Below, piece after piece: positions 31,751 through 56,252 of a stretch of DNA of 64,000 nucleotides (position 1 is the stretch's first letter; every line of letters starts with the position of its first letter). This DNA is from Candidatus Omnitrophota bacterium (GTDB lineage: Bacteria > Omnitrophota > Gorgyraeia > JAHJTE01): positions 577,332 to 641,331 of the forward strand of contig JAHJTE010000001.1 of assembly GCA_018830005.1 (NCBI GenBank). The letters run 5' to 3'. Both the position numbers and the translations under genes were made by a program. The notes under the pieces are model-generated. The model saw nothing but the letters and a program-made list of their open reading frames with translations, had not been told where the DNA came from and ran no database searches.

Positions 31751-32176
31751 ATGGATAAAAAGAAAGTTTTATTTATTTGTGTGCATAATTCAGCGCGGAG
31801 CCAAATGGCGGAGGCGTTTCTCAAAAAATACGGCGGAGATCGCTTTGAGGTCGAGAGCGCGGGGCTTGAGCCGGGCAAATTGAATCCTATAGTTGTTGAG
31901 GCCATGAAGGAAGCCGAAATTGATATATCGCAAAATAAGACCAAAAGCGTCTTTGATTTCTATAAACAAGGAAAACAATACGATTATGTAGTAACAGTCT
32001 GCGATGAGTCGCAGTCGGGCGCGTGCCCGGTATTCCCAGGCAAGGGTAAGCGACTTCACTGGGGGTTTGATGATCCTTCGGGATTTGATGGGTCGCGTGA
32101 AGAAAAATTGAGACAGACACGCGTAGTAAGAGATGCGATAAGAGATCGGGTCAAGACATGGCTTAGGGAGTTTTAA
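31751..32176 (+). CDS. arsC: arsenate reductase, thioredoxin-coupled LMW-PTP type
   Basis: [20 protein letters not shown] (CX5R P-loop) and a downstream Cys pair ([10 protein letters not shown]). Confidence 0.8.
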
Positions 32177-38580: not shown

Positions 38581-39828
38581 ATGAAAAAATATCCGTCATA
38601 TAAAGATTCGGGAATTGAGTGGATTGGACAAGTGCCAAAGGATTGGCAGGTTAATCGTTTGAAAACGGTTTGCACTTTTACCTATGGAGATTCTTTGACA
38701 AATGAGGATCGAGTTGAAGGCGGTATTCCGGTCTTTGGTTCAAATGGAATTGTCGGCTATCACAACAAAGCGATTACGCATAAGCCATGCATTGTCATTG
38801 GACGCAAAGGTTCATATGGTAAAGTTAATTTTTCACAAGCAGAGTGTTTCCCTATCGATACTACTTACTTTGTTGACGACCGTTCAGCAAAATGTGATTT
38901 GAAATGGCTTAATTATGTTTTGCCGCTTTTAGAGCTCGATAAGTTTTCTAAGGACACTGGGGTTCCGGGGCTTAATCGGGAAGATGCGCATGACAAAAGA
39001 GTGCCAGTGCCTGAAAATAATGTTCAAAAAGTTATTGCTGAATATCTCGACCGCAAGACCGCGCAGATTAATGACCTTATTGCTAAGAAAGAGCGGATGA
39101 TTGAGCTTCTCAAGGAGGAGCGCACAGCGATTATCAATCAGGCGGTTACCAAAGGGCTTGATCCTAACGTGGAGATGAAAGATTCTAACACCGAATGGCT
39201 AGGAGAGATTCCGAAGCATTGGGAGGTGAAAAAACTAAAATATCTTGTTGATAAAGTTCAAACAGGAATAACGCCACCTTCAGAACGTACTGACTATTAT
39301 GATGACGGTGACATTGATTGGTATACGCCAGGCGATTTTCAAGAGTCGATTCGGTTAAAAAATTCTTTTCGAAAAATCAATAGATTAGCTATCGAAGAAG
39401 GAGTTGCGAGAATATTCCCGCCGCTCTCTGTCTTATTAATCGGAATTGGAGCTACGTTGGGTAAAGTCGGTATCATTGAAAAGCTATCAAGTTCTAACCA
39501 GCAGATAAACGCTATAACATTTTCGGATAAATTCAATCCATTTTTTGGTGTTTACTATTTACAGGCAATAGCTGATACAGTCATAAGTCTTTCAAATGCT
39601 TCTACTCTCGCCATTCTGAATCAGACGCAGACGAAAGATATTCTTATGTTGGTGCCACCCTTAGAAGAACAAGGCAAGATTTTTAAATATATTCAATCGG
39701 TTGAGCTTAGACATTCCGAAATTGTTAATAAAGAACAAAAGCAGATAGATTTATTAAAAGAATATCGCACTGCTTTGATTTCCGAGGTAGTAACGGGTAA
39801 AGTAGATGTTCGGGAGTACGCCGCATGA
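38581..39828 (+). CDS. hsdS: type I restriction-modification system, specificity subunit
   Basis: Two target-recognition domains, each preceded by W(I/L)G(Q/E)(V/I)PK(D/H)W(Q/E)V conserved regions. Central and C-terminal coiled coils. Confidence 0.85.
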   Translation: MKKYPSYKDSGIEWIGQVPKDWQVNRLKTVCTFTYGDSLTNEDRVEGGIPVFGSNGIVGYHNKAITHKPCIVIGRKGSYGKVNFSQAECFPIDTTYFVDDRSAKCDLKWLNYVLPLLELDKFSKDTGVPGLNREDAHDKRVPVPENNVQKVIAEYLDRKTAQINDLIAKKERMIELLKEERTAIINQAVTKGLDPNVEMKDSNTEWLGEIPKHWEVKKLKYLVDKVQTGITPPSERTDYYDDGDIDWYTPGDFQESIRLKNSFRKINRLAIEEGVARIFPPLSVLLIGIGATLGKVGIIEKLSSSNQQINAITFSDKFNPFFGVYYLQAIADTVISLSNASTLAILNQTQTKDILMLVPPLEEQGKIFKYIQSVELRHSEIVNKEQKQIDLLKEYRTALISEVVTGKVDVREYAA

Positions 39829-42800
39829 GCTCAATTACAAACGAAAAAGCTTTTGAAGAAACCATTGAACGAAGCCTAATTGATCATGGAAGCTATGTTA
39901 AGGGCGACCCTGATAAATTCAATCGGGATCTTGCAATTGATCAAACAGTCTTGTTTCAGTTTATCAAGGATACTCAGAAGAATGTTTGGGATAGCTTGGC
40001 GGCTATTCATGGCGCTGAAGTAGAAAAGAAGTTTTTATATCGTCTTAATCAGGAATTAGATGCACGTGGAATGCTTGATTGTTTGCGTCATGGTATCATC
40101 GATTACGGTAAGAAGTTTGCCCTCGCCTATTTTAAACCTGTCAGCAAATTAAATCCCGAAACGCAAAAGCTTTATAATCAGAATATCCTCACTGTTACGC
40201 GTCAGGTTCATTACAGCACAAAAGACGAAAGCTCTATTGATATGCTTTTATCTGTAAATGGCCTTCCTGTGGCTACGATTGAGTTAAAAAACCCATTTAC
40301 TGGCCAGGATGTTGATGATGCCAAGCGGCAATACAAATATGACCGCGATGAGCGGGAACTATTGTTTCAGTTTAAGCAGCGCGCCCTTGTCCATTTTGCC
40401 GTGGATACAGATGTTATTTATATGACTACGCGTCTCCAAGGGAGCAAGACAAAATACCTACCTTTTAATAAGGGCTATAACAAAGGTGCCGGAAATCCGC
40501 CAAATCCTAATGGGCATAAGACGGCATATTTATGGGAAGAGGTTTTAGTCAAAGATAGCTGGATGGATATTTTAAGCAGGTTTTTGCATTTAGAAGTAGA
40601 AGAAAAGGCTTTTGAGGGCAGGAAATTCAAAATTGAAACCATGATCTTCCCCCGTTATCACCAGCTTGATAGCGTTCGACAGCTTTCTATGGATGTAATT
40701 ACACAGGGCGCCGGAAAGAATTATTTGATTCAGCATAGCGCAGGAAGCGGCAAGAGTAATTCAATCGCATGGCTTGCCTACCATTTGGCTGGCCTTCACG
40801 ACAAAACCGATAAACGTATATTTGATTCAGTGATTGTGATTACCGACCGTGTTGTTCTTGATAAGCAGTTACAAGATACGATTTATCAATTTGAACATAA
40901 ATCAGGAGTGGTTGAGAAGATTGATAAAGATTCCGCGCAATTAGCCCAGGCGCTTATCAGCGGAACGAACATTATTATTACTACGCTCCAAAAGTTTCCT
41001 TTTGTTTTGGACAAGGTTAGCGATCTTCCCAAGCGCAATTACGCCGTTATTGTTGATGAGGCGCATAGTTCGCAGGGCGGTGAATCCGCTAAGAAAATGA
41101 AAGATGTACTTTCTTCAGTTGATAGAGATGAGATTTCGCTTGATGGGACTGATGAAGAAGATGATATAGAAGATACCATTCGCGAATCTATGCTTAAACG
41201 GGGCCCCAGGCCGAATCTGAGCTTCTTTGGCTTTACGGCAACACCCAAGGCAAAAACACTGGAATTCTTTGGCCAAAAAGGCATAGATGGTAAACCTCAA
41301 CCGTTTCATCTTTATTCCATGCGCCAAGCCATTGAGGAGAGGTTTATCCATGATGTCCTTGAGAATTACACTACCTATCAAACGTTTTTTCAACTATCCA
41401 AGAAGATTGAAGAAGATCCGAACGTAAACAAGAAAAAGGCTGCCCGTGCGATTGCGCGCTTTTTGACACTCCACCCCTATAACCTGGCTCAGAAAACCGA
41501 GGTTATGATTGAGCACTTCCGGCAGGTTACTATGAAAAAGATTGGCGGTAAGGCCAAGGCGATGGTGGTTACAGCTTCGCGCGAGCATGTGGTGCGATAT
41601 AAGCATGAATTTGATAGATACCTGAAAGAGAAAGGATATAGAGATATTAAGGTTCTTGTCGCTTTCTCAGGGGTAGTTCTTTTGGATGGCATACCGCCAG
41701 AATATTCAGAAGAAAGCATGAATAAATATGTCGATAAAGATGGTAAAGAACGGCACATAAAAGAAAAAGAATTGCCGGAGAAATTCTCAACATCAGAATA
41801 CCAGATATTGCTTGTTGCGGAGAAATATCAAACCGGGTACGATGAGCCGCTTTTGCACACTATGTATGTGGACAAGCGCCTTGATGGCGTTAAGGCTGTG
41901 CAGACCATGAGTCGTTTAAATCGAATCTGTCCGGGCAAAGAAGATACTTTCATCTTGGATTTTGTTAATAAGCGAGAGGATATTTTAGCGGCTTTTCAGC
42001 CATATTATGAGCAGACACAATTAAGCGATGTAACCGATCCGAACAAGCTTTATGATCTTAAGGCCAAGCTGGATTCGTTTAAGGTGATATACCAGTCAGA
42101 TGTTGACGCTTTTTGCGCCGTATTCTTCAAAAATAAAGAATTACAGACAAAACGCGAGCATGCTCAATTAAATTCAATAGTAGATGTGGCGGTTGAGCGG
42201 TTTAAGGCAATAGAGAAAGACGAGCATAAAGAGGATTTTATCAATACACTGGGTGTTTTTGTCCGCCTGTATGCGTTTTTGGCGCAGATTATGCCGTTCC
42301 AAGATATTGAGCTTGAGAAATTCTACGCTTATTCTCGTCTTTTACTGAAGAAACTTCCGGGGTCTGACCGGGGTGAAAGATATCACCTCGGTGATGAGGT
42401 CGCGCTTGAGTATTACCGTTTGCAGAAAATAGCTGATGGCAAGATTCAATTGCAAAAGGGTTCAGGTGCGGCTATTGAGCCGATTTCAGAAGCTGGAACG
42501 AGAAAGGATAAAGAAGAATATGCTCACCTATCTGAAATAATCAAACTTCTCAATGAACGGTTTGGAACTGATTTTACCGAAGCCGATAAGCTATTCTTTG
42601 ATCAGATTGAAGAAGAGATGGTTATGGATGAAAAACTTGGCGTCCAAGCCAAGACCAACACGATAGATAATTTCAAATACGGCTTTGAGGATGTGTTTAT
42701 TGCAAAGCTTGTTGACCGGATGGATCAGAATCAGGATATCTTCAATAAGATTATGGATGACAAGGCTTTTGCGGTAGTTGTGAAGGATTATTTATTGAAG

Positions 42801-43340
42801 AAGGTCTATAAGCGATTAAATATTGAAGAAGATGTTGTAAGAGAAGCCGAATCGTTTTTGAGTGATTTGGTTCCCGATGATGAGATAACGCAAGATCAGA
42901 AAAAGTCGCATGTTCGAGTCTGCACTCTTCAAGCCGTAGCAACTTCATTTACTGAACAGCGAACGCCCGAAGTAATTGGCTGGAAACGCTTGGATGGCGT
43001 CTTTAAACTCAATAAAGATATGTTTATCGCTAAAGTCGTTGGCAAGTCGATGGAGCCGACTATTAAAGACGGCAGTTGGTGTTTATTCCGCCCGGATCAG
43101 GGCGGAAGTCGTAACGGTAAGATTGTATTAGTGGAATCGCGGCATATTACTGATCCCGAGACGATGAAAAGTTATACGATTAAGCGTTATTTTAGCGAAA
43201 AAGCGGTAACTGAAGATACGTTTCAACATGTAAAAATCATCTTACGCCCAGATAATAAAGATTTTCAAGATATCGTTTTGGAGAATGTTCAAGAGGGCGA
43301 CTTCCACGTTGTAGCGGAGTTTGTGAAGGTGATTAGTTAA
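39825..43340 (+). CDS. hsdR: type I restriction enzyme R subunit with a fused C-terminal S24 (LexA/UmuD-like) peptidase domain
   Basis: HsdR N-terminal motif TIELKNPFTG, Walker A QHSAGSGKSNS, DEAH box VIVDEAHSS and helicase C motifs. The last ~125 aa read VVGKSMEPTIKDGSWCLF...GKIVLVE...YTIKRY...ILRPDN, like the LexA C-terminal domain. Confidence 0.8.
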   Translation: MSSITNEKAFEETIERSLIDHGSYVKGDPDKFNRDLAIDQTVLFQFIKDTQKNVWDSLAAIHGAEVEKKFLYRLNQELDARGMLDCLRHGIIDYGKKFALAYFKPVSKLNPETQKLYNQNILTVTRQVHYSTKDESSIDMLLSVNGLPVATIELKNPFTGQDVDDAKRQYKYDRDERELLFQFKQRALVHFAVDTDVIYMTTRLQGSKTKYLPFNKGYNKGAGNPPNPNGHKTAYLWEEVLVKDSWMDILSRFLHLEVEEKAFEGRKFKIETMIFPRYHQLDSVRQLSMDVITQGAGKNYLIQHSAGSGKSNSIAWLAYHLAGLHDKTDKRIFDSVIVITDRVVLDKQLQDTIYQFEHKSGVVEKIDKDSAQLAQALISGTNIIITTLQKFPFVLDKVSDLPKRNYAVIVDEAHSSQGGESAKKMKDVLSSVDRDEISLDGTDEEDDIEDTIRESMLKRGPRPNLSFFGFTATPKAKTLEFFGQKGIDGKPQPFHLYSMRQAIEERFIHDVLENYTTYQTFFQLSKKIEEDPNVNKKKAARAIARFLTLHPYNLAQKTEVMIEHFRQVTMKKIGGKAKAMVVTASREHVVRYKHEFDRYLKEKGYRDIKVLVAFSGVVLLDGIPPEYSEESMNKYVDKDGKERHIKEKELPEKFSTSEYQILLVAEKYQTGYDEPLLHTMYVDKRLDGVKAVQTMSRLNRICPGKEDTFILDFVNKREDILAAFQPYYEQTQLSDVTDPNKLYDLKAKLDSFKVIYQSDVDAFCAVFFKNKELQTKREHAQLNSIVDVAVERFKAIEKDEHKEDFINTLGVFVRLYAFLAQIMPFQDIELEKFYAYSRLLLKKLPGSDRGERYHLGDEVALEYYRLQKIADGKIQLQKGSGAAIEPISEAGTRKDKEEYAHLSEIIKLLNERFGTDFTEADKLFFDQIEEEMVMDEKLGVQAKTNTIDNFKYGFEDVFIAKLVDRMDQNQDIFNKIMDDKAFAVVVKDYLLKKVYKRLNIEEDVVREAESFLSDLVPDDEITQDQKKSHVRVCTLQAVATSFTEQRTPEVIGWKRLDGVFKLNKDMFIAKVVGKSMEPTIKDGSWCLFRPDQGGSRNGKIVLVESRHITDPETMKSYTIKRYFSEKAVTEDTFQHVKIILRPDNKDFQDIVLENVQEGDFHVVAEFVKVIS

Positions 43341-43450: not shown

Positions 43451-44713
43451 ATGAATAGTGCAATTGAAACTTTTTATTCAGATTTAAGGCGCTTGAAAGA
43501 AGGAAAGTTGGCCATATTTTTCGGTGCGGGATCGAGTTATGATTATGGAATTCCCACTATGGAAGAAATGGCGAAGATGCTAATTGAAGAATTAAAAAAT
43601 GGTACAAGTAAAATTTTTGATAAAGATACATGCACAGTTTTAAATTCAATTATTGGTTTATCAACTAAAGATAGCGAGGGCGAGAGTAAAAAGCAAAAAA
43701 ATAGTTCACAATGGAATATTGAAGATTTATTGACACGATTACATCGTATTCAAGAAGCTATAGGCGATGAAGGGTCTCCTTTCCCAAAGGTTAATGCTAC
43801 TATTGGTTCATCTGATTTTTCGAAAGATGAGATTAAACATGCTGAGTCAAAATTAGTTGAGTTTATGGTCAAATGCTATCAGCTAGACATCGTTGACAAA
43901 ACCTCACATGGTGTCAAATCGATAGAATATCTGTCTAACTTTTTTGAGTGCTTGGGGGGTTTTTATAATTCAATTTCTGTTTTTACAACTAATAACGATC
44001 TGTGTATTGAGACAGCTCTGCTTCAGCTTTCACAGAGACCTAAAAATACTCAAAAGAAAACTTTTTACTTAATAGATGGATTTTCTCATGGTGCGCTACC
44101 AATATTTTCGATGACTAATTTTTCAATTGTACCTCCCACTCAATCTAATCGTGTAGTTGTATATTTATGGAAATTGCACGGTTCAATAGATTGGACATAT
44201 ACTTGCCCATTAACAGATAATGAGGACGAGAAAACAGAAAATACTAAGTTTCACGACGATTCTATTATTTGTAGATATATCGACCCTGATATGTGGAGAA
44301 AATTTCAAAAAGCCGGAGCTATTTCCAAAGCATCTTCGTTAGATCAATCAAAAATAATGATTTTCCCGACACCATCTAAATATTCTCAGACTTATAACAA
44401 CCCATATATGGATCTATATCAAGCTTTTCGCCGAACACTAGAGACTTGCGAACTTCTACTAGCAGTTGGCACTAGCTTTCCAGATAGTCATATAAATTCA
44501 GCAGTGAAATCGTTTATTAATCGTGATAATACCCAACTTTACGTAGTTGATCCTGAAGTAACATGTGAATCTATTCATAAGCTATTTGGTAAATGTAATT
44601 CCATACAGCCGATCATCAAGTCAGGATTTAAAGATTTTATTCAAGAGGTCCGCAATATCGAATTAATGCGAGAAAAAGAAAGCCCAAAAGAAGGAAGGGA
44701 TAATAATGAGTAA
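43451..44713 (+). CDS. SIR2-family (SIR2_2) NADase-like protein, Sir2-HerA defense component
   Basis: N-terminal KLAIFFGAGSSYDYGIPT (GAGxS) motif of the SIR2_2 family. Overlaps the downstream HerA-like gene. Confidence 0.75.
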   Translation: MNSAIETFYSDLRRLKEGKLAIFFGAGSSYDYGIPTMEEMAKMLIEELKNGTSKIFDKDTCTVLNSIIGLSTKDSEGESKKQKNSSQWNIEDLLTRLHRIQEAIGDEGSPFPKVNATIGSSDFSKDEIKHAESKLVEFMVKCYQLDIVDKTSHGVKSIEYLSNFFECLGGFYNSISVFTTNNDLCIETALLQLSQRPKNTQKKTFYLIDGFSHGALPIFSMTNFSIVPPTQSNRVVVYLWKLHGSIDWTYTCPLTDNEDEKTENTKFHDDSIICRYIDPDMWRKFQKAGAISKASSLDQSKIMIFPTPSKYSQTYNNPYMDLYQAFRRTLETCELLLAVGTSFPDSHINSAVKSFINRDNTQLYVVDPEVTCESIHKLFGKCNSIQPIIKSGFKDFIQEVRNIELMREKESPKEGRDNNE

Positions 44714-46559
44714 ACGTATAGGTGAAATATTAGCTGTAAGCGGTGTAAATGTCACAATAGAAGCAGACCCAAGCTTAAGCGATTTGCATGTTCGGCACGC
44801 TGGAAAAACATATTCTGTTGGGCAACCTGGTTCATATCTTCTTGTTGATCGTGGGCATGATAAACATCTTATTTTAGTAACAACTGTTCGTAAGATGCGT
44901 TGGTCTTCTGCGTCGCAGAATTCTGAAATTTCTTCTTCTGATAATATGCGAGAAGGTCTTCCCAAAGGTAATTTCCCATATTTACCCAAAGCGCCTGAAT
45001 TGATTGATCGGACGCTTATCGATGGACTTCTCGTAGGTTCAATTATCGGGAGGCGATTTGAGATAGGTGTTACACACCTGCCGATAGTGGGGGATAGTGT
45101 TACCCTTGCTCTTCAGGAACATCTTTCAATAGCACTAGCCCCTGATAAAGATCGACACACAGTTTCAATTGGGACCTTTGTTGATTCGAATATCTCTGTC
45201 CATCTAGACTTAGACGATCTTTGTGGTAAACATTCAGCAATTGTAGGCACGACTGGTTGCGGAAAATCTTACACCGTCGCACGCTTATTGCAAGAGCTAG
45301 TATGTAAATATCCCAGTGCAAATATTATTGTGTTTGATCTGCATGGTGAATATCGTAAATGTTTTGAGCATTCAAATTATATACGGGCAGATAAACTTAC
45401 ACTTCCCGCATGGTTGCACTCGTTCGAAAACTTATTTGATCTGTGTGCCGATTTAAGTAATCAGTTTAACATTCATAATCAACGATGGGCTTTTCGAGAC
45501 GGCATATTTCAGCTTAAACAAAGATATTGCAAGGATATTTTAAAGGACGAATCCCTATCAAAGAATATCGATTTAGATTCGCCTATCCCTTTTGATTTTG
45601 AGCATTTAGTTAATTATTTAAAAAACTTGAATAATGAAACCAGAAAATCTGACGATGATAAGCCAGCTTATGCAACTGCTGGCGATCATGATTTATTTAA
45701 GGAACTCATTGAATATTTGCCAAAAAAACGAGGGAGTATAGCCGCTGGCCCTCTAAATGGAGAGTTAGATCGGCAAGTATTAAGAGTCGAGGCGAGATTT
45801 AAGGATCCTAGATATGCTTTTATGTTTCAATATGAAAAACCTAAAGAAGGGGATCTTGAAAGACTAGTGCGACAAGTATCAGGTCTTATACTCGATTCTC
45901 CCTTACCTATCACGGTTTATGACCTTAGTTATCTTCCTTCGGAAACAGTTGGAACAGTTGTAGCTACGATATCGCGTATTATTTTTCAAGTCTATTTTCT
46001 AGCCAAGCGTCGTGAGTTTGTCCCAACGCTTATTGTTTTCGAAGAAGCACATAATTACATATCTCATAGATCTCGCAGTGCTTATGGTGATGCTCGTGAG
46101 GCTGCTGAAAGAATTGCAAAAGAGGGCCGTAAATTTGGAATAGGCATGCTGGCAGTAAGCCAGCGTCCTAGTGAACTTAGTGAGACTTTATTGAGTCAAT
46201 GCAATACATTCTTATGCATGCGGCTTGCTAATTCTGTTGATAAAAATCACATTTTGTCCTTATTGCCTGACTCAATGAGTAATTTAGTAGATATTTTACC
46301 TATTTTGCCACGAGGGCATATTTTAGCAGTTGGGCAAGCTACAAAAATGCCGGTACGGACAATTGTTACTAAAATAGAAAATAAAAATAATGAGCCCGAT
46401 AGTGATGATCCGCCATTTGGAAAAAAATGGAGTGGGGATATTACGAAAAGAAGTATTCCTGATATAGAAAAAATATGCGATATGTGGATAAGGTCAGAAA
46501 AACAAGACACGGATGATATTGCTTCAAAGACAAAAAATTTATCGAGCGAGAAAAAATAA
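44706..46559 (+). CDS. HerA/FtsK-like ATPase (DUF87), Sir2-HerA defense component
   Basis: Walker A AIVGTTGCGKSYTV and Walker B LIVFEEAHNY. 617 aa. Confidence 0.75.
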   Translation: MSKRIGEILAVSGVNVTIEADPSLSDLHVRHAGKTYSVGQPGSYLLVDRGHDKHLILVTTVRKMRWSSASQNSEISSSDNMREGLPKGNFPYLPKAPELIDRTLIDGLLVGSIIGRRFEIGVTHLPIVGDSVTLALQEHLSIALAPDKDRHTVSIGTFVDSNISVHLDLDDLCGKHSAIVGTTGCGKSYTVARLLQELVCKYPSANIIVFDLHGEYRKCFEHSNYIRADKLTLPAWLHSFENLFDLCADLSNQFNIHNQRWAFRDGIFQLKQRYCKDILKDESLSKNIDLDSPIPFDFEHLVNYLKNLNNETRKSDDDKPAYATAGDHDLFKELIEYLPKKRGSIAAGPLNGELDRQVLRVEARFKDPRYAFMFQYEKPKEGDLERLVRQVSGLILDSPLPITVYDLSYLPSETVGTVVATISRIIFQVYFLAKRREFVPTLIVFEEAHNYISHRSRSAYGDAREAAERIAKEGRKFGIGMLAVSQRPSELSETLLSQCNTFLCMRLANSVDKNHILSLLPDSMSNLVDILPILPRGHILAVGQATKMPVRTIVTKIENKNNEPDSDDPPFGKKWSGDITKRSIPDIEKICDMWIRSEKQDTDDIASKTKNLSSEKK

Positions 46560-46641: not shown

Positions 46642-47547
46642 ATGAAAGATAAAATTTTAGAAAACGCAATTGATTTTAACCAGAAAGGAATGAAATATTA
46701 CGTAGGAGAAGATATGAAACATTCTCTGCTAAATGTAGCTGTTGCAGCGGAATTATTAGGGAAAGCTTTTTTGGTAGGTATAAATTCTTGTTTGATCATT
46801 GATAGAGATTTTGATTCTTTTTTACATATATGTGGAGAAGGTAAGCATGCAAAGAAAAGTCCTGCAAGTATTCGAACGATTGGAGCTAAAGAAGTATTTA
46901 GTCGTTGTGCCCAGATTGTTCCCAAGCTAAAAGACTACGACGTAGAAATGAGTTTGTTGGCTGATTTTAGAAGCGGTGTTCTTCATTTGGCAGAACACGA
47001 GAAAGAGTTTACAAAGAAAGTTTTCCTCCCTTATTTAAAGTTTGTAAAGATATTGTTAGAAGCCATGAAATTATCTTTAAGCGACTATTTTGGTGAATTC
47101 GCGCAACTTGTTGAAACTAGTATCAAGGAGGCTACGAAAGAAGTTGACATTAAAGTCGAACGGCTTATTGCTAAGGCGAAGATCAGCTTTAAAGAGAGAT
47201 TTGAGGATGTGGAAGCGCCAGTGAAAAGAAATATAATCAAAAGTATAATCGACAATTATGTTCTATCGCAGTATGAAGAAGAATTAACCGAATGTCCCGC
47301 TTGTGAAAACGATGCAGTTGTGACGGGATCTCATGAGGTCACGGATTGGGATGTTGATTTTGATCGTTACGGGAATCCAGAAGGGGCATATCCAATCGTC
47401 AAATTATATGCGACCTCTTTTAGATGTAATGTTTGTGGTTTAAAACTCAATACTTCCGAAGAATTAGAGTCTGCGGGCATTGATACTATTGTGCGTTTAG
47501 AAAATGTCAACCCAGCAGATTTTTACGATCCCGACAACACTTTCTAA
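46642..47547 (+). CDS. hypothetical protein with a C-terminal CxxC...CxxC zinc ribbon
   Basis: 301 aa. CPACEN ... CNVCG. Confidence 0.45.
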   Translation: MKDKILENAIDFNQKGMKYYVGEDMKHSLLNVAVAAELLGKAFLVGINSCLIIDRDFDSFLHICGEGKHAKKSPASIRTIGAKEVFSRCAQIVPKLKDYDVEMSLLADFRSGVLHLAEHEKEFTKKVFLPYLKFVKILLEAMKLSLSDYFGEFAQLVETSIKEATKEVDIKVERLIAKAKISFKERFEDVEAPVKRNIIKSIIDNYVLSQYEEELTECPACENDAVVTGSHEVTDWDVDFDRYGNPEGAYPIVKLYATSFRCNVCGLKLNTSEELESAGIDTIVRLENVNPADFYDPDNTF

Positions 47548-47602
47548 ATGATTTTCATAGGTAAAATTGTAGAAAAAAATAAAATTTTTCGAATGTCTTC
47601 TG

Positions 47603-48163
47603 ATGAAGGCGTATCGAGAGAATAATTTGCAAAATATGGAGGAAGCTATGAATACAAATTTTGATCAACCCTTCGATTTTAAGGTATCCGATTCATCTGA
47701 AAATTTTGATACTTGGATTAATCGTGAATACATACCTGCTGAATCGAGAACATTGTTACGTAACGCCAACATTCTTTTTGTCCCTCATGAGAATTTTCAC
47801 GAACAGAAAGTTCCTGTGTTTCCTCACAAAACTGAGGAAGTCTTTCATTTTCTTCGAAGGCATGCCCCTAAAGGGATTAATGTCGACATCTGTATTGCAG
47901 ATGATGATTATAAGGAAGTTGTCCTCCATTCTGCTTTAATTATTTTTGGAAGTATAGTTGTATCGGCGATAGCACTTCCTGTTCTTAAGGATTTACTGTC
48001 GGAATATTTGAAACAGAAATTATTTAACAAGTCTAACAGCAATATTAAAGTTTCATTGACCGTTGTTAATACTTCTGGTAAAGGGAAGCAGTTTGATTAT
48101 GAAGGGCCTATTGAAAATTTCGATAAAGTGGTTGCCAAAATCCAACGGGCTGGAGAGAAATAA
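47603..48163 (+). CDS. hypothetical protein (start uncertain: 47603, 47636 or 47648)
   Basis: ORF with one hydrophobic helix (LIIFGSIVVSAIALPVL). Confidence 0.4.
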   Translation: MKAYRENNLQNMEEAMNTNFDQPFDFKVSDSSENFDTWINREYIPAESRTLLRNANILFVPHENFHEQKVPVFPHKTEEVFHFLRRHAPKGINVDICIADDDYKEVVLHSALIIFGSIVVSAIALPVLKDLLSEYLKQKLFNKSNSNIKVSLTVVNTSGKGKQFDYEGPIENFDKVVAKIQRAGEK

Positions 48164-48166
48164 TCT

Positions 48167-49006
48167 ATGGACACTGAAGCAATTAAGCAATTTTTGAATG
48201 ATGTCCATCAGAGACATAAGGATTATGATTATACAAAAGTTAAATCGGTGTTACAGGAATTAAAACGAGGATTCGTTGCTACTAATAAACAGGATGAGGC
48301 CAAAGAAGTATGGTGTTATGAGCAAACAATAAATGCTCAAAAGAATTTTATGGAAGCTTACAAAGCATTAAAACAAGAAAAGTTTTATGAGGCTTGGTGT
48401 ATTTTGGAAAAATGCGAGATTGCCCTTTTGTATTTAAAACCGCATTTTTATCAACGGTTTTCGGAATATTCTTTGGATTTTATCGAAAATCATGCGCGAA
48501 TGTTACAATCATTGTATCCATATAAACTCTTTATAAGTCCAGAGATGCTTATCCATCATTACAAATGCAGTATATGCGATCAAAGAGTCGTTCTTCGGAA
48601 TCCGTGTAGACATGAAGTTGGAGAGATTTATAATGGCGAGATGTGCGTAAGAATCATAGACGGAATTGAGTTTCTAGGCTCAGCTTTTGTAACAAATCCT
48701 GTTCAAAAGTACTCAGTTCCGTTTTTGACCGATCAACAGACAGGTAAGACAGTAGATCCATATAATTATAACCTAGTAAAATTTTTAATTGAGAAGCTGT
48801 CTACACCATTTGATGATTGGAGCTTGAAATGGACGAAAAAGCTTCATCCGCATTCAAAATTTAAACATCTTAGTAGGAATGACAAATGTCCATGCGCTTC
48901 GGGGAAGAAATATAAGCAATGTTGCCTTAATAAAAAAGGAGTGCTAATGGATCATTGTATATTTTCTATTCCTGGAATAGAAGGTTGTGAAGAAAGGATT
49001 CTTTAG
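48167..49006 (+). CDS. hypothetical protein with a C-terminal SEC-C metal-binding motif
   Basis: KCPCASGKKYKQCC near the C-terminus. Confidence 0.5.
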   Translation: MDTEAIKQFLNDVHQRHKDYDYTKVKSVLQELKRGFVATNKQDEAKEVWCYEQTINAQKNFMEAYKALKQEKFYEAWCILEKCEIALLYLKPHFYQRFSEYSLDFIENHARMLQSLYPYKLFISPEMLIHHYKCSICDQRVVLRNPCRHEVGEIYNGEMCVRIIDGIEFLGSAFVTNPVQKYSVPFLTDQQTGKTVDPYNYNLVKFLIEKLSTPFDDWSLKWTKKLHPHSKFKHLSRNDKCPCASGKKYKQCCLNKKGVLMDHCIFSIPGIEGCEERIL

Positions 49007-49147
49007 GAAAATCAATAAAAGGCAATTGTAGAGATTTGCGTTACATCTAAACAGGATAGGTTATAAAAATAAGGGGGTAATTTTAAGCTTTTAGCAACAG
49101 GCGCTTGGTTTCATTTCGGCGTTCTTTCTCGCGGGAGACCAATCTTT

Positions 49148-49888
49148 ATGAGCACAACCTACGACCTCAACAAAATAAAATTCGCTACCGATGAAGCGAC
49201 GTTCAAACGTGCGGTGGGGTTATATGAGGGCGGCAAGGTGACGGAGGTTGAGGAGGCCTTAGGTGATTGGACAGCCATTGTGCTTGGGATTAAGCCGTAC
49301 CGGGTTTCTGTGTCAGGGCGTAATTACAAGCATAGCCATTGCACCTGTTATGTTGGAGAAAAAGGCACGCTTTGTAAGCACATGGTTGCTTTGGCAATCC
49401 ATGCGGTTATGGGAGGGAAGCCATTGGACGATAAGGATAAAGAGCTTTCTTGTGGGATTGAATACAGCGGGCGTCGCGGTGTGCTGAATAAGGAAGAATT
49501 AGAAGCGCTTAAGAAAGCTGTTACTGAATCTATGCGATATATAAAGCCTTACCGGGGGCCCTCACGCACCTGGTTTGCTAATCAGGATTCTTTACGGGAA
49601 GGATGCAACCGGTTGTCAGCCGTTATTTCTAGCCTGCCGGTTAACAAGCAGGTGGTTGATATCTTGGTCAAATTGCTTTTGCGCTTGGAAAGGAAGCTAA
49701 GTGTCGGAGGAGTGGACGATTCAAACGGTATTGTGGGAGGATTAGCCGGTGAATTAGTGGCTCTGCTTGAAGGATTCACAAAAATAGATCCGTCATGTAT
49801 TGATTCCTTTGAACCGCTTTGCGGGAAAGAGTATTGTTTCGGTTGGGAAGATCCACTTGTCCGTATTTTTGACGAGAGAGTTAAATAA
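49148..49888 (+). CDS. SWIM zinc-finger domain protein
   Basis: YKHSHCTCYVGEKGTLCKHMVA (CxCx(n)CxH). Confidence 0.55.
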   Translation: MSTTYDLNKIKFATDEATFKRAVGLYEGGKVTEVEEALGDWTAIVLGIKPYRVSVSGRNYKHSHCTCYVGEKGTLCKHMVALAIHAVMGGKPLDDKDKELSCGIEYSGRRGVLNKEELEALKKAVTESMRYIKPYRGPSRTWFANQDSLREGCNRLSAVISSLPVNKQVVDILVKLLLRLERKLSVGGVDDSNGIVGGLAGELVALLEGFTKIDPSCIDSFEPLCGKEYCFGWEDPLVRIFDERVK

Positions 49889-49894
49889 GAATAA

Positions 49895-51109
49895 TTGAGA
49901 GAAGAGATGGCTGAAGAAGTGATGGGAAAAGATTTAACAGAGAATGTCCAAGAATTGGCCGAGGCGTGGTATAAGGGCGAGTTTGACTTAGGATATTACA
50001 ACTTTTATATCTGCACCGCGACCGAAGGATTGATTCAGAAATGCAAGGACGAGCATAAGATTAAGGTGTCGCGTTCGGATATAGAAGATATGTGCAAGCT
50101 GGACCTGCTTGAGTTCATATTGGATAAAAAAGACGGGAAAAAGATGTTTCCTCAGTTTATAGCTGACAGGGTAGCGTTTATAAAGGAATTACAGGCAAAT
50201 CTTAATTATCCGGTTCCAAGGTTACAGCAGATTATCGCTTATGAGAACGAGTCGCTGCCGTATTCAAACGAGGCATGTGATTTCTATTATGCTGACAGAA
50301 AGAATATTATGACCTGGCTTATTAAGAGGCTTAAATTTGAGATAAATGGCAGGAAAGAGTACTTGAAGGCGCTTGATGCGATTAATAAAAAATACGCTGA
50401 TGATGTAAAAAAGAAAAGAATAAAAAGAGTGATTGCTGATTTGGTTAAAAATGCAGAGGCAAGTATTGTCACCATTGAAGAGGTTGTCACCGAGTTAGCA
50501 AAGTGGAAATGGAAGGGCTTATCCAAACAGCAGAAGGATGAAGTGGTAAAAGTTGTTTTTGAACAACAGCTTTACGATGAGCGTGAGCGCATATCTGATA
50601 TGAAGCACTATTATAATAAGATATTATCGGGATACAGCCCTCAAGTTGAGTTTAAAAAGCCTGAGACAGCAAAGGAGCGGTTGGATTTTAGGCAAATTAA
50701 CTGGGAGGAAACAATCGAGTCCGTTAAGATGTACTCGCAGTTTATCGATTTTTTCGCGACTCCGTATTTCTCTGTGGAAATTGATAGGAAAGCAATCACT
50801 ATAAAGATAACAAATCCTAAGGAAGTGAGCACTCCCTTAAAAGGCGCGATAGATAAAATTTACACTATTTTTAAAAGCCGTTTTGGATACAGGCGAAAAG
50901 GATGGGGAGAGCGTTCAGGGAAAAAGCAACTTATGGAGCAGCGCAACGAGAAGCTGAGAAAGCTTTACTCAATGATGCGCAAAGAGAAACCAAATGTAGC
51001 CAGCGGGATTTTGATTGACCGGCTTATCGAAGAAACAAAAAAGACGGAGATCCCAGTTTTGACCACCGAAAGGATAAAGAGAATTATTTATACAAAGAAT
51101 ATGTCGTAA
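49895..51109 (+). CDS. hypothetical protein
   Basis: 404 aa ORF with coding-like composition and no recognisable motif. Confidence 0.45.
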   Translation: MREEMAEEVMGKDLTENVQELAEAWYKGEFDLGYYNFYICTATEGLIQKCKDEHKIKVSRSDIEDMCKLDLLEFILDKKDGKKMFPQFIADRVAFIKELQANLNYPVPRLQQIIAYENESLPYSNEACDFYYADRKNIMTWLIKRLKFEINGRKEYLKALDAINKKYADDVKKKRIKRVIADLVKNAEASIVTIEEVVTELAKWKWKGLSKQQKDEVVKVVFEQQLYDERERISDMKHYYNKILSGYSPQVEFKKPETAKERLDFRQINWEETIESVKMYSQFIDFFATPYFSVEIDRKAITIKITNPKEVSTPLKGAIDKIYTIFKSRFGYRRKGWGERSGKKQLMEQRNEKLRKLYSMMRKEKPNVASGILIDRLIEETKKTEIPVLTTERIKRIIYTKNMS

Positions 51110-51162
51110 ACTCTCGCGCTTATTCTCGCATATGCGTGTAAATTTATTATAGTTTACGACAT
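51101..51162. repeat. 14-bp inverted repeat (AATATGTCGTAAACT / AGTTTACGACATAT) with a 38-nt spacer
   Basis: Perfect 12-bp arms at 51101-51112 and 51151-51162, overlapping the stop codon of the upstream gene. Possible element boundary or recombination site. Confidence 0.4.
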
Positions 51163-51190
51163 ATCCAGAGAAGCTTTTTTAGGGTATAGT

Positions 51191-51228
51191 CCCTGTAGGA
51201 ATAAAAACCTGCAGGGATTTTTTATTTT
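51191..51228 (+). terminator. rho-independent terminator
   Basis: CCCTGTAGG-aataaaaa-CCTGCAGGG hairpin followed by ATTTTTTATTTT. Confidence 0.6.
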
Positions 51229-51255
51229 ATGGCAACGACAAAAGGCGAGATAAAA

Positions 51256-51573
51256 ATGAGAAGAGTAAAAGTTGATGAAGTGGTTTTCTACCCCATACGT
51301 CCTACCGAAAAAGGTTTAATCGGTTTTGCCTCCTGCTTATTCGATAGACGCCTTTCCTTGAGCAGTATTGCCATATATACACGGCCTGACGGAAAAGATT
51401 ACAGGCTTCTTTTTCCCTCAAAGCGGCTCCCGAACAATAAGGAAATAAATATATTTTATCCCGTGAATAGCGAGACTTACGAGCTGATAAAAGACGCGAT
51501 CGTGAAAAAAATAGAAGAATTAACCGAAAAGGTGAAAGAAAGAGGTGGATATGAAGAATATGGAAAATTATGA
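51256..51573 (+). CDS. SpoVG-family nucleic-acid-binding protein homolog
   Basis: MRRVKVDEVVFYPI..GLIGFASCLFD..LLFPSKRLPNNKEINIFYPVNSETYELIKDAI aligns with the SpoVG fold. Alternative start at 51229. Confidence 0.5.
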   Translation: MRRVKVDEVVFYPIRPTEKGLIGFASCLFDRRLSLSSIAIYTRPDGKDYRLLFPSKRLPNNKEINIFYPVNSETYELIKDAIVKKIEELTEKVKERGGYEEYGKL

Positions 51574-54157
51574 TTTCAGGGACATTATCGAAAACGTAAG
51601 GGAAAGGTATGACATTGGCGAAGTAGTAAGCCGACATGTAAGGCTTACTCATAGCAAGAAAGGCATTTGCCCTTTTCATGAGGAAAAGACGCCGAGTTTC
51701 TCGGTAAATACGAAAGGGCAGTATTTTTATTGCTTTGGCTGCGGTAAGGGCGGAGATGTTTTTAAATTTCTTGAGCTTTATGAGAGGAAGTCCTTTGCCG
51801 AGGTTTTAAGAGAGCTTGCGGATAGGGCCGGTATTAAGGTTCCAGACTTAGGTCCTAATTCGCACAAGCATATTGATGAAGAAAGGACGACTCGAGATAT
51901 CCTTAGCGTCGCAGCGGAATATTATCACGAGCGCATTACGCAAGAAGCAAACGATTATTTGACAAAGAAAAGAGGCATTAAGGATGAGATAATCTCCAGA
52001 TTCAAAATTGGTTATACAAACGGGAATTTAAACGAATACCTGATTAAAGAGTGCTGTTTCCCGCTCGATATTTGTCTTAAGGCCGGAGTCCTTAAGAAAA
52101 GAGAAGATGGTACCATCAAAGACTACTTCTGCAATAGGATTATTTTTCCTAATTTCAGGCGCGGCCAGGTGGTTCACATGTCCGCAAGAGGATTGGGTGA
52201 TAATGAGCCGAAATACCTGCATCTTCCGGGAGAGATAAAATACCCATATAATGAAGACTCGCTTTATGAAAAGGAAGTCTATGTTGTTGAGGGAATACTT
52301 GACTGCCTATCTCTTATCCAGTGTAGTTATCCTGCCGTTGCCGTTTTAGGCGCATCCAATTTTAAGTCCGAATACTTACAAAAGTTTTCCCGCTGCGAAA
52401 AGGTCTACATTTGCCTTGATGGCGATGAGGCGGGCATAAAAGGTTCGCTTAAGATCGGCAACATGATAGGAGATAAAGCAAGAATCGCTTCCTTGCCGGA
52501 AGGTATGGATATCAACGATTACCTTAATAGTTACACAAAAGATGATTTTGATAAGTTAATCGCCTGCTCCAAAGATCCTATTAAATATGAGCTTAGCTTT
52601 ATCTCGCCGGATACGGATAAAACCGAGCTTCCCCAAAAGCTTGAACCTATCTTGAAAAAATTAAGCTCTATGGAAAAAGCCCGGATAGAGGCGTATCTCA
52701 GCTATGAGATTAAGGCGCGTTTCAAGCTTAAAAAAGAGGATGTAGACGGCTATAGAGATATGATTATGAAGAGCCGCAAGGCGGATATGCAGGAAAGTAA
52801 GAGCCGGGCGGAGGAAGAAGAAGCTAAGCCAGTATATACCGCTTTATTTGAGGGCTTGATTGACGTAGTAGAAAAAGAAGGCAAACCCGCTTTTTTGATA
52901 AAGGAAGGTGATGATCTTTTAATCGTGAACAGCCTAAAGAAGGACGGCTTGCTTTATCTCCCGCCGCCTAAAGAGCAGATTCCATGGCTTATGCCGCGGG
53001 GAGAGGAGATATTGAAATTATATGAGACCCAATCAGAAAAATCCGCTGAGGAATGTGATAGAGAGCTTTATGACGAGCTGTTAGCTTACCATAAGTCAAT
53101 TTCGGAATTGCCGGAGGATAGCTATTACGACCTAATAACGGCCTGGGACCTACACACCTATCTTTTGGAAACAATAGAATATACGCCGATTATATGCCTG
53201 TTTGCCGTTCCTGAGCGCGGCAAAAGCCGCACCGGCAAGGGCATGATTTACATTGCCTTTCGCGGGATACATGTCGAGTCTTTAAGGGATGCCTATCTTG
53301 TGAGGGTTGCGAATGATCTCATGGCCTCTTTGTTTCTTGACGTAAAGGAGATATGGAAAAAGGCGGAGAAAAACGGGAGCGAAGACATACTATTACACCG
53401 TTTTGAGAAAGGGGCAAAAGTGCCGAGAGTCCTTTTTCCCGATAAGGGCGCGCACAGGGATATCGTGTATTATTCCATATTCGGCCCTACCATAATAAGC
53501 ACAAACGAGGGGATACACAGGATTCTTGAAACAAGGGCTATTCCTATTAACATGCCCGATACGACAAGACGTTTTGAAGATGATGTTACGCCTTTACGCG
53601 CCTTACCGCTCAAGGAAAAATTAATCACGTTCCGGGCAAGGCATTACGGGAAGGCGTTGCCATGTATGCCGAAACCGGCTTTAGGCAGGTTAGGGGATAT
53701 ACTTAAGCCTATCCAGCAGATTATACGCCTGGTCAGGCCGGAGCGAGAGGCTTATTTTCTAAAGCTTGTTAAGAGGTTAGAGTCGGAGAAATTGATTGAA
53801 AAAGCGGATACTATTGAGGCTCAGATCTTGGCTGTCTTGTCGAATCTCAGAAGCAATGTGGACAAGGGCATGCTTCCGGTTAAGGAGATTACGGATAGCT
53901 TTAACGAAGATAGGAGTGATAAATACAAGGTTACCTATCAGAGGATTGGCCGGAGGCTGTCGGCCATGGGGTTTAGTAAGGTAAGGACAAGTAACGGCGC
54001 TTCTGCCATAGTCTGGGATGAGGAGAAATTGGAGAGAATTAAGGACTCATACGGGTTGAGCAAAACGTCAGAAATACCAGATACGTCAGATACACCTAAA
54101 GACCCTTATGTTACTGACGTTTCTTGCGATACTGACGTTTCCCGGAGGCCATTTTGA
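51545..54157 (+). CDS. DNA primase (DnaG-like CHC2 zinc finger plus Toprim) with a large C-terminal domain
   Basis: CPFHEEKTPSFSVNTKGQYFYCFGCGKGGDVFKFL zinc-binding motif. Toprim-like VYVVEG...LDGDEAG. 870 aa. Confidence 0.75.
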   Translation: MDMKNMENYDFRDIIENVRERYDIGEVVSRHVRLTHSKKGICPFHEEKTPSFSVNTKGQYFYCFGCGKGGDVFKFLELYERKSFAEVLRELADRAGIKVPDLGPNSHKHIDEERTTRDILSVAAEYYHERITQEANDYLTKKRGIKDEIISRFKIGYTNGNLNEYLIKECCFPLDICLKAGVLKKREDGTIKDYFCNRIIFPNFRRGQVVHMSARGLGDNEPKYLHLPGEIKYPYNEDSLYEKEVYVVEGILDCLSLIQCSYPAVAVLGASNFKSEYLQKFSRCEKVYICLDGDEAGIKGSLKIGNMIGDKARIASLPEGMDINDYLNSYTKDDFDKLIACSKDPIKYELSFISPDTDKTELPQKLEPILKKLSSMEKARIEAYLSYEIKARFKLKKEDVDGYRDMIMKSRKADMQESKSRAEEEEAKPVYTALFEGLIDVVEKEGKPAFLIKEGDDLLIVNSLKKDGLLYLPPPKEQIPWLMPRGEEILKLYETQSEKSAEECDRELYDELLAYHKSISELPEDSYYDLITAWDLHTYLLETIEYTPIICLFAVPERGKSRTGKGMIYIAFRGIHVESLRDAYLVRVANDLMASLFLDVKEIWKKAEKNGSEDILLHRFEKGAKVPRVLFPDKGAHRDIVYYSIFGPTIISTNEGIHRILETRAIPINMPDTTRRFEDDVTPLRALPLKEKLITFRARHYGKALPCMPKPALGRLGDILKPIQQIIRLVRPEREAYFLKLVKRLESEKLIEKADTIEAQILAVLSNLRSNVDKGMLPVKEITDSFNEDRSDKYKVTYQRIGRRLSAMGFSKVRTSNGASAIVWDEEKLERIKDSYGLSKTSEIPDTSDTPKDPYVTDVSCDTDVSRRPF

Positions 54158-54675: not shown

Positions 54676-55314
54676 ATGACAGAAGAACAAAAAAGACAAA
54701 ACGAGGTGAATAAACAAAGCATTGCCGAGATAGCCAAGAAGAAAAGGCAGCTTTATCTTTATAACAAGATGCAGAGCGGAAAACCTCTCTCTGTTTCCGA
54801 GATAAAGGAAGTCGAGGCATTTGAGGCCTCAACTTTATCTCCGGGAGTCGTCAGGACTCAAGCAGAGGTAGCGCAGACCCTTGGCGTAACCAAAAGGACT
54901 GTTGAGCGATGGGCTAGTCAGGGAATGCCGATAACTCGTGAAGGCAATTATGATCTTCTGGATATCAAGGCCTGGAAGGTCACGAGAAAGAGATTCAAGT
55001 ATTTAAAAGACAATGAAAAAGAAAAATGGGACATAGAGTATCGAAAAAACAAAGCGCTTATAATCAAGATCGAATACGAAAAGACTTTAGGCCAGCTTAT
55101 ATCAAGAGAGGAAGTTGAAAAAGGAAGGATCGCCAGAATCATTGCCGTTAAAAATGCTTTTCTTGTTCTGCCTACGAGACTTGCGCCTTTACTTGCGATG
55201 AAGGAGCCAAGAGAAATCGAATCCATCATGCATGAGAACATTGCTGAAATATTAGATGATTTTGCAGGCGTGAGAAAAGGAATAAATGGAGAAGATGTGC
55301 AAGAGGAATGGTGA
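54676..55314 (+). CDS. HTH DNA-binding protein (terminase-small-subunit or replication-regulator-like)
   Basis: AEVAQTLGVTKRTVERWASQGMPI helix-turn-helix. 212 aa. Confidence 0.4.
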   Translation: MTEEQKRQNEVNKQSIAEIAKKKRQLYLYNKMQSGKPLSVSEIKEVEAFEASTLSPGVVRTQAEVAQTLGVTKRTVERWASQGMPITREGNYDLLDIKAWKVTRKRFKYLKDNEKEKWDIEYRKNKALIIKIEYEKTLGQLISREEVEKGRIARIIAVKNAFLVLPTRLAPLLAMKEPREIESIMHENIAEILDDFAGVRKGINGEDVQEEW

Positions 55315-55736: not shown

Positions 55737-56252
55737 ATGTTCAAAAAATTATGGGACAGTATAAAATATAAAAAAATTTTGAGTGAAGTTGGAGATGGCC
55801 GATACCAAATATTTTCTCCAGAAGATCCATTTATTTCATCTTATTTATCTCCGGGATTAGCTAAGAAGCATGAAGATAAATTTACATGCGTATGTCTTGC
55901 TACTTGTGCTACTATTGTGACTTCAACAATTGATTATGCTTGTGAAGGAGTAATTATTCCTAAATGTTCACCGGTAGTTTTGTGGAGAACTTTTCGATAT
56001 TGCGAACACGATGGTGTCCCGCATCTTAACGCAGATGATAACATTATCTTTCCAGATCAAAAGGGCAGTATTTGGAAAGTATCAAAGACAGATTCCGAAG
56101 ACCACTATATTTCTATTGCTACATGGGCAGGACTCAACGTTATAGCATCTGCTTACCATTTACCACAGGTTCCGAGCGGAGCTTATTCGGATTATGTAGA
56201 AAATGGAGCTTCTGTGCCAATTACATTTGTGCCGGTGGGGAACAATAAGTAA
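55737..56252 (+). CDS. hypothetical protein
   Basis: 171 aa, Cys-containing, no recognisable motif. Confidence 0.4.
   Translation: MFKKLWDSIKYKKILSEVGDGRYQIFSPEDPFISSYLSPGLAKKHEDKFTCVCLATCATIVTSTIDYACEGVIIPKCSPVVLWRTFRYCEHDGVPHLNADDNIIFPDQKGSIWKVSKTDSEDHYISIATWAGLNVIASAYHLPQVPSGAYSDYVENGASVPITFVPVGNNK

Follow-up and report, generated by a model that had tools for sequence, protein, structure and literature searches.

A five-gene block of an Omnitrophota genome as a probable mosaic of three units at the cargo/backbone boundary of an integrative mobile element

The window analyzed here is a 64,000-nucleotide stretch of the genome of a Candidatus Omnitrophota bacterium (contig JAHJTE010000001.1, positions 577,332 to 641,331), and the question that it raises is whether five consecutive open reading frames (ORFs) at positions 46642-51109 of the window, named P1 to P5 in 5′ to 3′ order on the forward strand, constitute one system or several. 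The original prediction, made from the sequence alone, regarded the five as a candidate for a novel multi-gene defence or anti-defence module. All five ORFs are indeed found at their predicted positions, co-directional and closely spaced, with lengths of 301, 186, 279, 246 and 404 amino acids and intergenic gaps of 56, 4, 142 and 7 bp. Their surroundings are also as had been described: a type I restriction-modification (RM) system and a SIR2-HerA pair lie upstream, and a replication/integration module with a DnaG-type primase and a large serine recombinase lies downstream. No Pfam family matches P1, P2 or P5 above threshold. The block is probably a mosaic of three independent units, namely P1, P2-P3 and P4-P5, situated where the cargo of an integrative mobile element meets its backbone. 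Accordingly, the defence-island setting of the predicted module stands and two of the three units can credibly be proposed as defence genes, but a single five-gene module is not borne out.

Linkage of the five genes and the cargo/backbone junction

Conserved co-occurrence of the five genes had been proposed as a check on the five-gene module. The contexts of P5 relatives were collected by exact look-up and by scanning metagenomes with the alignment of P5, which yielded 28 loci (loci are cited below by number, with the prefix L), and all proteins of the island were compared with these loci by tblastn. P1, P2 and P3 were detected only in two contigs identical to the window and were absent from every non-identical P5 locus, whereas P4 was present in about half of the 28. 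Relatives of P1 and of P2-P3 were found elsewhere without the other genes of the block, and so the predicted co-occurrence failed.

One new multi-gene defence or anti-defence system in which the five genes act jointly would be in keeping with their common direction and tight spacing, with the lack of a strong terminator between any two of them, with their location in a defence island, and with the lack of a characterized function for all five. However, the only contigs in which they occur together are identical to the window, and every unit is found on its own elsewhere. Moreover, the block contains both a homology breakpoint and a step in third-position GC content, and P5 is linked to the replication module rather than to the cargo. 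The linkage data have already largely refuted such a joint system, which must be considered very improbable.

The junction between variable cargo and conserved backbone falls in the intergenic region between P3 and P4 (49007-49147), at about 49135-49148. Nucleotide homology to four sister loci (L009, L010, L014 and L021) starts at 49135-49169 by blastn, within the P3-P4 gap; homology to L023 starts at 49808, in the 3′ end of P4, and homology to L012 at 49882, just before P5. The third-position GC content is 0.30-0.32 in P1-P3 and 0.26-0.27 in the SIR2 and HerA genes, versus 0.47 in P4-P5 and 0.47-0.50 across P4, P5, the primase and the recombinase. Because the homology breakpoint and the step in third-position GC content agree, the five genes straddle the cargo/backbone junction.

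The content upstream of P5 is unrelated from element to element. It consists of Gabija GajA/GajB in L010, Dsr1 in L012, a 1542-residue NACHT-C-terminal protein with a DUF676 esterase in L023, and a type I RM system with a metallo-beta-lactamase-fold pair of 281 and 445 amino acids in L017, while L006 has a DUF4062/HATPase protein, DUF2130, AAA_13 and HNH proteins, a HEAT-SEC-C protein and a DinG-like helicase. Upstream of P5 in L005 and L015 are ordinary-looking metabolic and transporter genes, except for one divergently oriented gene of L005 that has no Pfam match. Since this content varies while the SpoVG-like gene downstream of P5 recurs, the upstream site is a hotspot for cargo, and P5 is part of the backbone.

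Three units of the block

P1 (46642-47547) is a stand-alone DUF3644/HEPN-like protein in which the motif R110-x4-H115 is followed by a C-terminal zinc ribbon of four cysteines. The ribbon had been predicted, and its two halves (C218-x2-C221 and C262-x2-C265) are invariant in the family; the accompanying statement that the block lacks any enzymatic motif is not quite right, as the R-x4-H motif of P1 is conserved and of HEPN type. Among PADLOC models, P1 of the window matches PDC-S64 (E 2.4e-5), HEC-08 (E 9.4e-4) and DUF3644 (E 2.8e-3). A word-index search gave a family of 24 members, all of about 300 amino acids, and tblastn located full-length relatives with 27-31% identity on 70 further plasmids of Streptomyces, Agrobacterium, Pseudomonas and others. 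When 23 family members were compared with the models, 11 matched DUF3644 (best E 4.8e-7), eight PDC-S64 (best E 3.9e-12), six HEC-08, and two the Csx1/Csm6 HEPN model. In the alignment of 23 sequences, E37, K41, R88, H115, C218, C221, C262 and C265 are invariant and R110 is present in at least 90%, with the motif in the form R[NS]G/S-x-x-H, typically RNGxxH.

The gene neighbours of P1 relatives are variable and often defence-like. Six differing contexts feature, respectively, a Ymh protein; a Dcm/Vsr/HATPase island with T5orf172; nothing notable; an AAA ATPase and an integrase; a DEAD-box helicase; and SIR2 with a UvrD/AAA pair. P1 is considered a stand-alone gene because the neighbours differ across these contexts. 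DUF3644 was placed in the HEPN superfamily by Anantharaman et al. (PMC3710099). HEC-08 (Hma-embedded candidate 08), which combines a DUF3644/HEPN domain with C-terminal zinc fingers, confers protection against phage that is abolished by mutation of the motif histidine (bioRxiv 10.1101/2024.01.29.577857). Judging from its profile matches and motifs, P1 appears to be a divergent member of the DUF3644/PDC-S64/HEC-08 kind, with the architecture of the validated single-gene defence HEC-08. It may function as an abortive-infection RNase, of which the R-x4-H site would be catalytic and the C-terminal zinc ribbon would be a sensor or regulator.

P2 (47603-48163) and P3 (48167-49006) form a two-gene cassette. 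The first gene encodes a single-pass membrane protein of 186 amino acids with one central hydrophobic stretch (Kyte-Doolittle(19) 2.0-2.4), located at the same position in 7 of 7 relatives, in which W38, P61, F73-P74, T77, D102-Y103, E105 and L108-H109 are invariant. The second encodes a cytosolic protein of 279 amino acids with an N-terminal helical bundle, a beta-rich zinc domain (C134-x2-C137...C147-x-H149...C160) and a SEC-C motif (C241-x-C243...C252-C253). The SEC-C motif had been assigned to the C-terminus; it is present at residues 237-254 (PF02810, E 3e-8, 33.8 bits versus a cut-off of 20.4), but it is not at the extreme end, as 26 residues still come after it. The 147 relatives of P3 are nearly all 280-290 amino acids long, align from end to end, and derive from Omnitrophica, Leptospira venezuelensis, Ignavibacteria, Thermoanaerobaculia and Nitrosotenuis; an identical copy is on record from a Candidatus Omnitrophica metagenome-assembled genome (MAG). 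The invariant residues include W49, W77, P118-Y119, C134-x2-C137, R144, C147-x-H149, Y155, G157, C160, K181-Y182-S183 and D197 as well as the SEC-C cysteines C241, C243, C252 and C253.

The P3 profile matches the zinc domains of SecA and YchJ in the PDB, where sequence searches with the single block proteins and with the family profiles matched only SEC-C and SWIM motifs. The confident AlphaFold model of P3 (predicted local distance difference test (pLDDT) 92, predicted template modelling score (pTM) 0.87) predicts a five-helix N-terminal bundle, with the SEC-C knuckle and the C-terminal strands packed into the beta-rich zinc domain; a Foldseek search of PDB and BFVD with this model returned no match with E ≤ 0.001. 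At least 80 loci obtained by scanning with a back-translated P3 pattern matched the SEC-C motif alone and have no bearing on P3. The sole outcome of a search of phage GenBank records with P3 was a partial match to a 'CxxC motif protein' of Halorubrum virus Humcor2 (MW344764.1, 2746-3111), which resembles P3 residues 57-181 (E 1e-6, 28% identity); the helical bundle and the first zinc site of P3 therefore also exist in a virus without the SEC-C tail.

The pair is adjacent in 10 of 10 independent contexts checked, from at least four phyla, each with a P2-like gene of 146-208 codons immediately upstream of the P3 relative at a spacing that ranges from overlap to 18 bp. Homology of P2 across the contexts has E-values of 1e-30 to 1e-52 by blastp and 1e-13 to 6e-40 with the P2 profile. 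These contexts comprise L029, Leptospira (L030), L032, an Ignavibacteria MAG (L118), a 1.46-Mb JGI contig on which the P2-like gene was recognized only by its size and location, the Enterobacter IncFII plasmid p58983CZ (L121), Acinetobacter baumannii (L122), a Hymenobacter plasmid (L123) and a Pseudoalteromonas replicon (L125); they include insertion sequence (IS) elements, integrases, a prophage end and RM genes. In a census of plasmids, P3-like genes were found in 214 records and enterobacterial P2-like genes in 205, with nearly identical counts by genus, and P2 of the window as query retrieved exactly the four non-enteric records, at coordinates adjacent to the P3-like genes. The enteric copies are at least 99% identical and therefore represent one lineage or event; 182 of the plasmids were typed as conjugative. 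The pair is also encoded by 24 of 5426 complete Escherichia coli genomes, where it is annotated 'hypothetical protein (x2)', and one of these copies is at a prophage end beside hipBA. An E. coli locus with the pair is NZ_CP073719.1:2431754-2433018. A literature search found no paper that names the E. coli accessions of P2 and P3.

Two of these contexts have further features. On enterobacterial plasmids (L121, 3134-5312) and E. coli chromosomes (L124, 6670-8848), the pair always comes after an ISLad2 transposase, a hypothetical protein of 267 amino acids and an FRG-domain protein of 453 amino acids, and the enterobacterial mobile unit may be a four-gene block. In the Ignavibacteria MAG (L118, 6929-9200), P2-P3 is followed by a guanylate-cyclase-domain protein of 260 amino acids and an N6_N4 methylase-Mrr fusion, which may be another defence cluster.

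PADLOC, Pfam, NCBIfam and PHROG models match nothing in P2 or P3 beyond the SEC-C tail of P3. With PADLOC 2.0, P2 yielded only Csn2 (E 0.015), and P3 and 38 of 40 relatives matched only the SEC-C tail (about 30 residues) of the PDC-S12 or E2 models; a scan of IMG/VR viral contigs with P2 found no relatives. P2-P3 is a real, mobile, uncharacterized two-gene unit, and because no PADLOC system matches it, it is a candidate for a new defence or addiction module. P3 could serve as a cytosolic zinc/SEC-C sensor or regulator and P2 as a membrane effector or anchor, and the module would act via membrane damage or sequestration of P3. It may tentatively be proposed that the pair is an unrecognized, widely transferred two-gene immune system (anti-phage or anti-plasmid) in which the zinc sites and SEC-C motif of P3 would sense infection or dock onto the translation or secretion machinery, with P2 as the executioner. 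If this is true, SEC-C would be a recurrent module of bacterial immunity, present also in Rugutis, PDC-S12, the CBASS E2 tails and DS-23, and the enterobacterial copy (WP_016239970 / WP_016239971), on more than 200 conjugative plasmids, would be a directly testable representative.

Alternatively, though this seems rather doubtful, P2-P3 might be an addiction or stabilization cassette resembling a toxin-antitoxin (TA) system, or a membrane-associated zinc/secretion accessory, that is carried passively and has no anti-phage function. Such a role would suit a pair found on many conjugative plasmids beside IS elements and TA genes (GNAT/DUF1778, HipBA), matched by no PADLOC model, and bearing a motif best known from SecA, where the motif binds zinc and SecB. 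It is at odds with the recurrence of the pair beside RM, SIR2-HerA, HNH, Mrr-type and ABC-three-component genes, and with the presence of SEC-C in the validated Rugutis, an antiphage protein of a lactococcal plasmid (PMC11381338), and in defence genes predicted by DefensePredictor, among them the 719-residue E2DP / DS-23 (PMC13092281 supplement).

P4 (49148-49888) is a protein of 246 amino acids with a SWIM zinc finger and a C-terminal helical domain. The canonical SWIM finger of the original prediction is confirmed (PF04434, E 4.5e-5), and its residues C65-x-C67...C76-x-H78 are invariant across 27 relatives. The C-terminal helical domain has no Pfam match and contains an invariant DDS-x-G motif (D190, D191, S192 and G194; consensus DDS[DN]G). 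The P4 family contains 287 cluster representatives with E ≤ 1e-3, of which 42 reach E ≤ 1e-30; most have about 245 amino acids. The family profile matches the SWIM region of ZSWIM8 (E 1.2e-5). The N-terminal 90 residues of P4 match the PADLOC model PDC-S62 (E 1e-14); since the match covers only 89 of the 566 model positions (6-94), P4 is not a full-length PDC-S62 member.

P5 (49895-51109) has 404 amino acids if translated from a TTG start; gene callers on the identical metagenome contigs began it at ATG 49907, for a length of 400. Its 47 relatives are all metagenomic, and no Pfam or PDB sequence match was found. Neither P4 nor P5 has relatives in IMG/VR viral contigs or a match on plasmids. 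An AlphaFold-type model of P5 (pLDDT 74) predicts an N-terminal winged-helix-like unit, three helices of 30 residues and a C-terminal helical region, and Foldseek returned local matches only, to GlnR (probability 0.99, root-mean-square deviation 2.0 Å over 78 columns), SoxR (0.91) and a MerR-like protein (0.82), with E-values of 0.4-0.7.

In every locus with enough flanking sequence, the gene after P5 is SpoVG-like, and next comes a primase or a protein of 379 amino acids. P4 is complete and adjacent to P5 in five sister loci, 1.3 kb away in one, reduced to a 3′ stub in two (L023 and L027) and absent from seven; as a partner of P5 it is dispensable, and in some sister elements incoming cargo has overwritten part of it. 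Between P5 and the SpoVG-like gene are an inverted repeat and a terminator that had been thought to close the block. Both are real, but they are not a mere block end: they are part of a non-coding segment of about 130 nucleotides (51099-51229, forward strand) whose conservation, like that of P5 and the SpoVG-like gene, extends over 12 related elements, down to the most divergent of them (in which P5 is 36-38% identical). The inverted repeat is a perfect 14-nucleotide pair (51099-51112 and 51151-51164), and the terminator-like hairpin (51188-51219) has a T run after it, just before the start of the SpoVG-like gene. When the window sequence 51085-51235 was aligned with L003, L005, L006, L009, L011, L013, L015, L017, L020, L023 and L028, both stems were found to contain some compensatory changes. 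The outer inverted repeat has the consensus ATAxGYCGTAAAC...GTTxxCGRCxTAT, and there is a conserved central ATTCTCGACATATGCGA box. A search of the block against Rfam matched no family; the segment could be an operator, an origin or an attenuator.

P5 is a backbone gene of the element and, on the evidence of its model, probably a DNA-binding regulator. It would act at the conserved inverted repeat/terminator to control the downstream SpoVG-primase replication operon, with P4 as an accessory. A different possibility is that P4-P5, a SWIM sensor with its partner, is a two-gene cargo defence system, common among these elements without belonging to their backbone. The resemblance of the P4 N-terminus to the defence candidate PDC-S62 would favour this, as would the gap of only 7 bp and the adjacency of the two genes in five sister loci; however, P5 occurs without P4 in seven loci and never without the SpoVG-like gene and the non-coding segment, P4 has decayed to 3′ stubs in L023 and L027, the predicted N-terminus of P5 is of MerR-like DNA-binding type, and no plasmid, phage or viral-contig copies were found in the searches made. 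A P4-P5 defence system is therefore improbable, and P5 as backbone gene with P4 as its dispensable partner is the preferred assignment.

Several considerations weigh against the division of the block into three such units. Gene linkage, family membership, motifs and the junction were observed directly, but the biochemical activities of P1 to P5 and any anti-phage role are deduced from sequence, and the five genes may still be co-transcribed. The Pfam HEPN matches of the P1 family are weak, and its HEPN fold is predicted from profiles and motifs. When the P1 family was compared by hhalign with the proteins encoded upstream of two P1 relatives, including the Ymh protein, no relation was detected; as both comparisons came out empty, they indicate no conserved partner of P1 and give no extra support to the HEPN assignment. 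The roughly 200 plasmid copies of P2-P3 are one near-identical cassette that represents one event, the pair has no recognizable effector domain, and the evidence of its neighbourhoods is guilt by association. P4 could be an independent cargo gene, with a family (287) larger than that of P5 (47 clusters) and an N-terminus like that of a defence candidate. The MerR-like assignment of P5 depends on local Foldseek matches that have poor global E-values.

The host element

On the left, the genes of the host (the pst operon, phoU and an ars cluster) extend to position 32176. The last of them (31730-32176) was read from the sequence, rather than called by any tool, as a putative ArsC-type arsenate reductase; an interpretation as a split-off fragment of miaB was rejected, as it has no similarity to MiaB. 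On the right, the gene of the large serine recombinase (56252-57931; PHROG integrase, E 3e-111) has a stop codon that overlaps the start of miaB, and the same junction is present in the sister locus L010. Since host genes reach 32176 and the recombinase gene ends at 57931, the integrative mobile element (32177-57931, forward strand) is an island of about 25.7 kb between arsC and miaB, with defence cargo at about 32.5-49.1 kb and backbone at 49.1-57.9 kb. When the left and right edges of the element were compared in search of attL/attR repeats, no repeated core and nothing above chance was found. As for miaB itself (57928-58989), MiaB models match only at positions 2-366 of 429, the C-terminal TRAM region is absent, and the next gene begins at 58986.

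The cargo upstream of the block comprises AbiEi with a nucleotidyltransferase, two metallophosphatases, a PD-(D/E)XK protein, the type I RM system and, directly upstream of P1, the SIR2-HerA pair (43451-46559, forward strand; PADLOC SIR2 E 9e-29 and HerA E 9e-126). The HsdR protein of the RM system (1171 amino acids, 39825-43340) has a C-terminal Peptidase_S24 domain of the LexA/UmuD-like type (E 6e-9), an unusual fusion, and a similar large S24-bearing protein is encoded near a P1 relative in L035. Between hsdM and hsdS, touching both, is an ORF of 239 amino acids (37857-38576) without a Pfam match that is possibly an embedded accessory or defence gene.

Downstream of the block, the order of genes is SpoVG-like gene (51229-51573, forward strand; Pfam SpoVG E 2e-6), DnaG-type primase (51545-54157, forward strand; CHC2 zinc finger, DnaG_N and Toprim domains; PHROG DNA primase E 2e-73), small-terminase-like helix-turn-helix (HTH) protein, large serine recombinase, and miaB. 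The SpoVG-like gene and the primase (51229-54157) are the replication module of the backbone. The HTH protein (212 amino acids, 54676-55314) matches PHROG small terminase (E 4e-22) as well as excisionase-type HTH models. A recombinase, a primase and a packaging-related gene, the set expected of phage satellites and of elements like phage-inducible chromosomal islands (PICIs), are thus found on one integrated element. Taken together with the primase and the large serine recombinase, the small-terminase match suggests that this Omnitrophota island may be phage-satellite-like.

The sister elements contain other cargo of note. Directly upstream of P5 in two of them (L016, 4858-7028; L017, 7804-9974) is an overlapping gene pair that encodes a protein of 281 amino acids without a family match and a metallo-beta-lactamase/RMMBL-fold protein of 445 amino acids, the latter also present in a third element (L019, 114-1451); the pair has no PADLOC match and is another candidate cargo system. 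In L027 (1129-1572), a homologue of the second metallophosphatase of the window (34800-35360) with 85% identity abuts the 3′ stub of P4 and the P5 gene; cargo modules are evidently shuffled within the element family.

Significance and comparison with known systems

The dissected map of the block replaces a tempting but wrong five-gene reading, and it follows that the block as a whole would be a poor choice for cloning. The new findings are modest but concrete. P1 is a divergent HEPN and zinc-ribbon gene that would form a branch of its own among the defence proteins that combine HEPN with zinc fingers. P2-P3 is a widespread membrane/SEC-C cassette for which no structural counterpart was detected in PDB or BFVD; it is compact, conserved and unstudied, and its copies on clinical enterobacterial conjugative plasmids and in E. 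coli make it directly testable in a model host. The serine-recombinase element family, represented in Omnitrophota and related metagenome contigs, has a defined defence-cargo hotspot that can be mined for more systems.

P1 resembles HEC-08 and PDC-S64 in the succession of an N-terminal DUF3644/HEPN domain, an R-x4-6-H motif and a C-terminal zinc finger or ribbon, and in its occurrence as a single gene in defence islands. It is distant from both (E 9e-4 over about 50 residues of HEC-08; E 2.4e-5 over 160 of the 339 positions of PDC-S64), shorter than either, and equipped with one four-cysteine ribbon. P3 shares the SEC-C motif with Rugutis and E2DP / DS-23, with which it was compared by description, no homology having been shown beyond the motif. 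The latter are single genes of 359 and 719 amino acids, respectively, and the motif of Rugutis is N-terminal; in contrast, P3 has 279 amino acids, a motif near its C-terminus and an obligate membrane-protein partner. P4 has in common with PDC-S62 and with SWIM proteins of the ZSWIM8 type the CxC...CxH finger and about 50 residues before it, whereas its C-terminal domain with the DDS[DN]G motif has no match.

Hotspots of defence genes are a feature of phage satellites and integrative islands, for example P4-like satellites (not to be confused with gene P4 of this block), PICIs and the Vibrio phage-defence elements. The element described here is like them in that a conserved integration/replication backbone stands beside one site at which unrelated defence systems are swapped. 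It differs from them in its Omnitrophota host, in the use of a large serine recombinase instead of a tyrosine integrase, in being known from its genes alone, and in a core trio of its own, which consists of P5, the conserved inverted repeat and the SpoVG-like gene.

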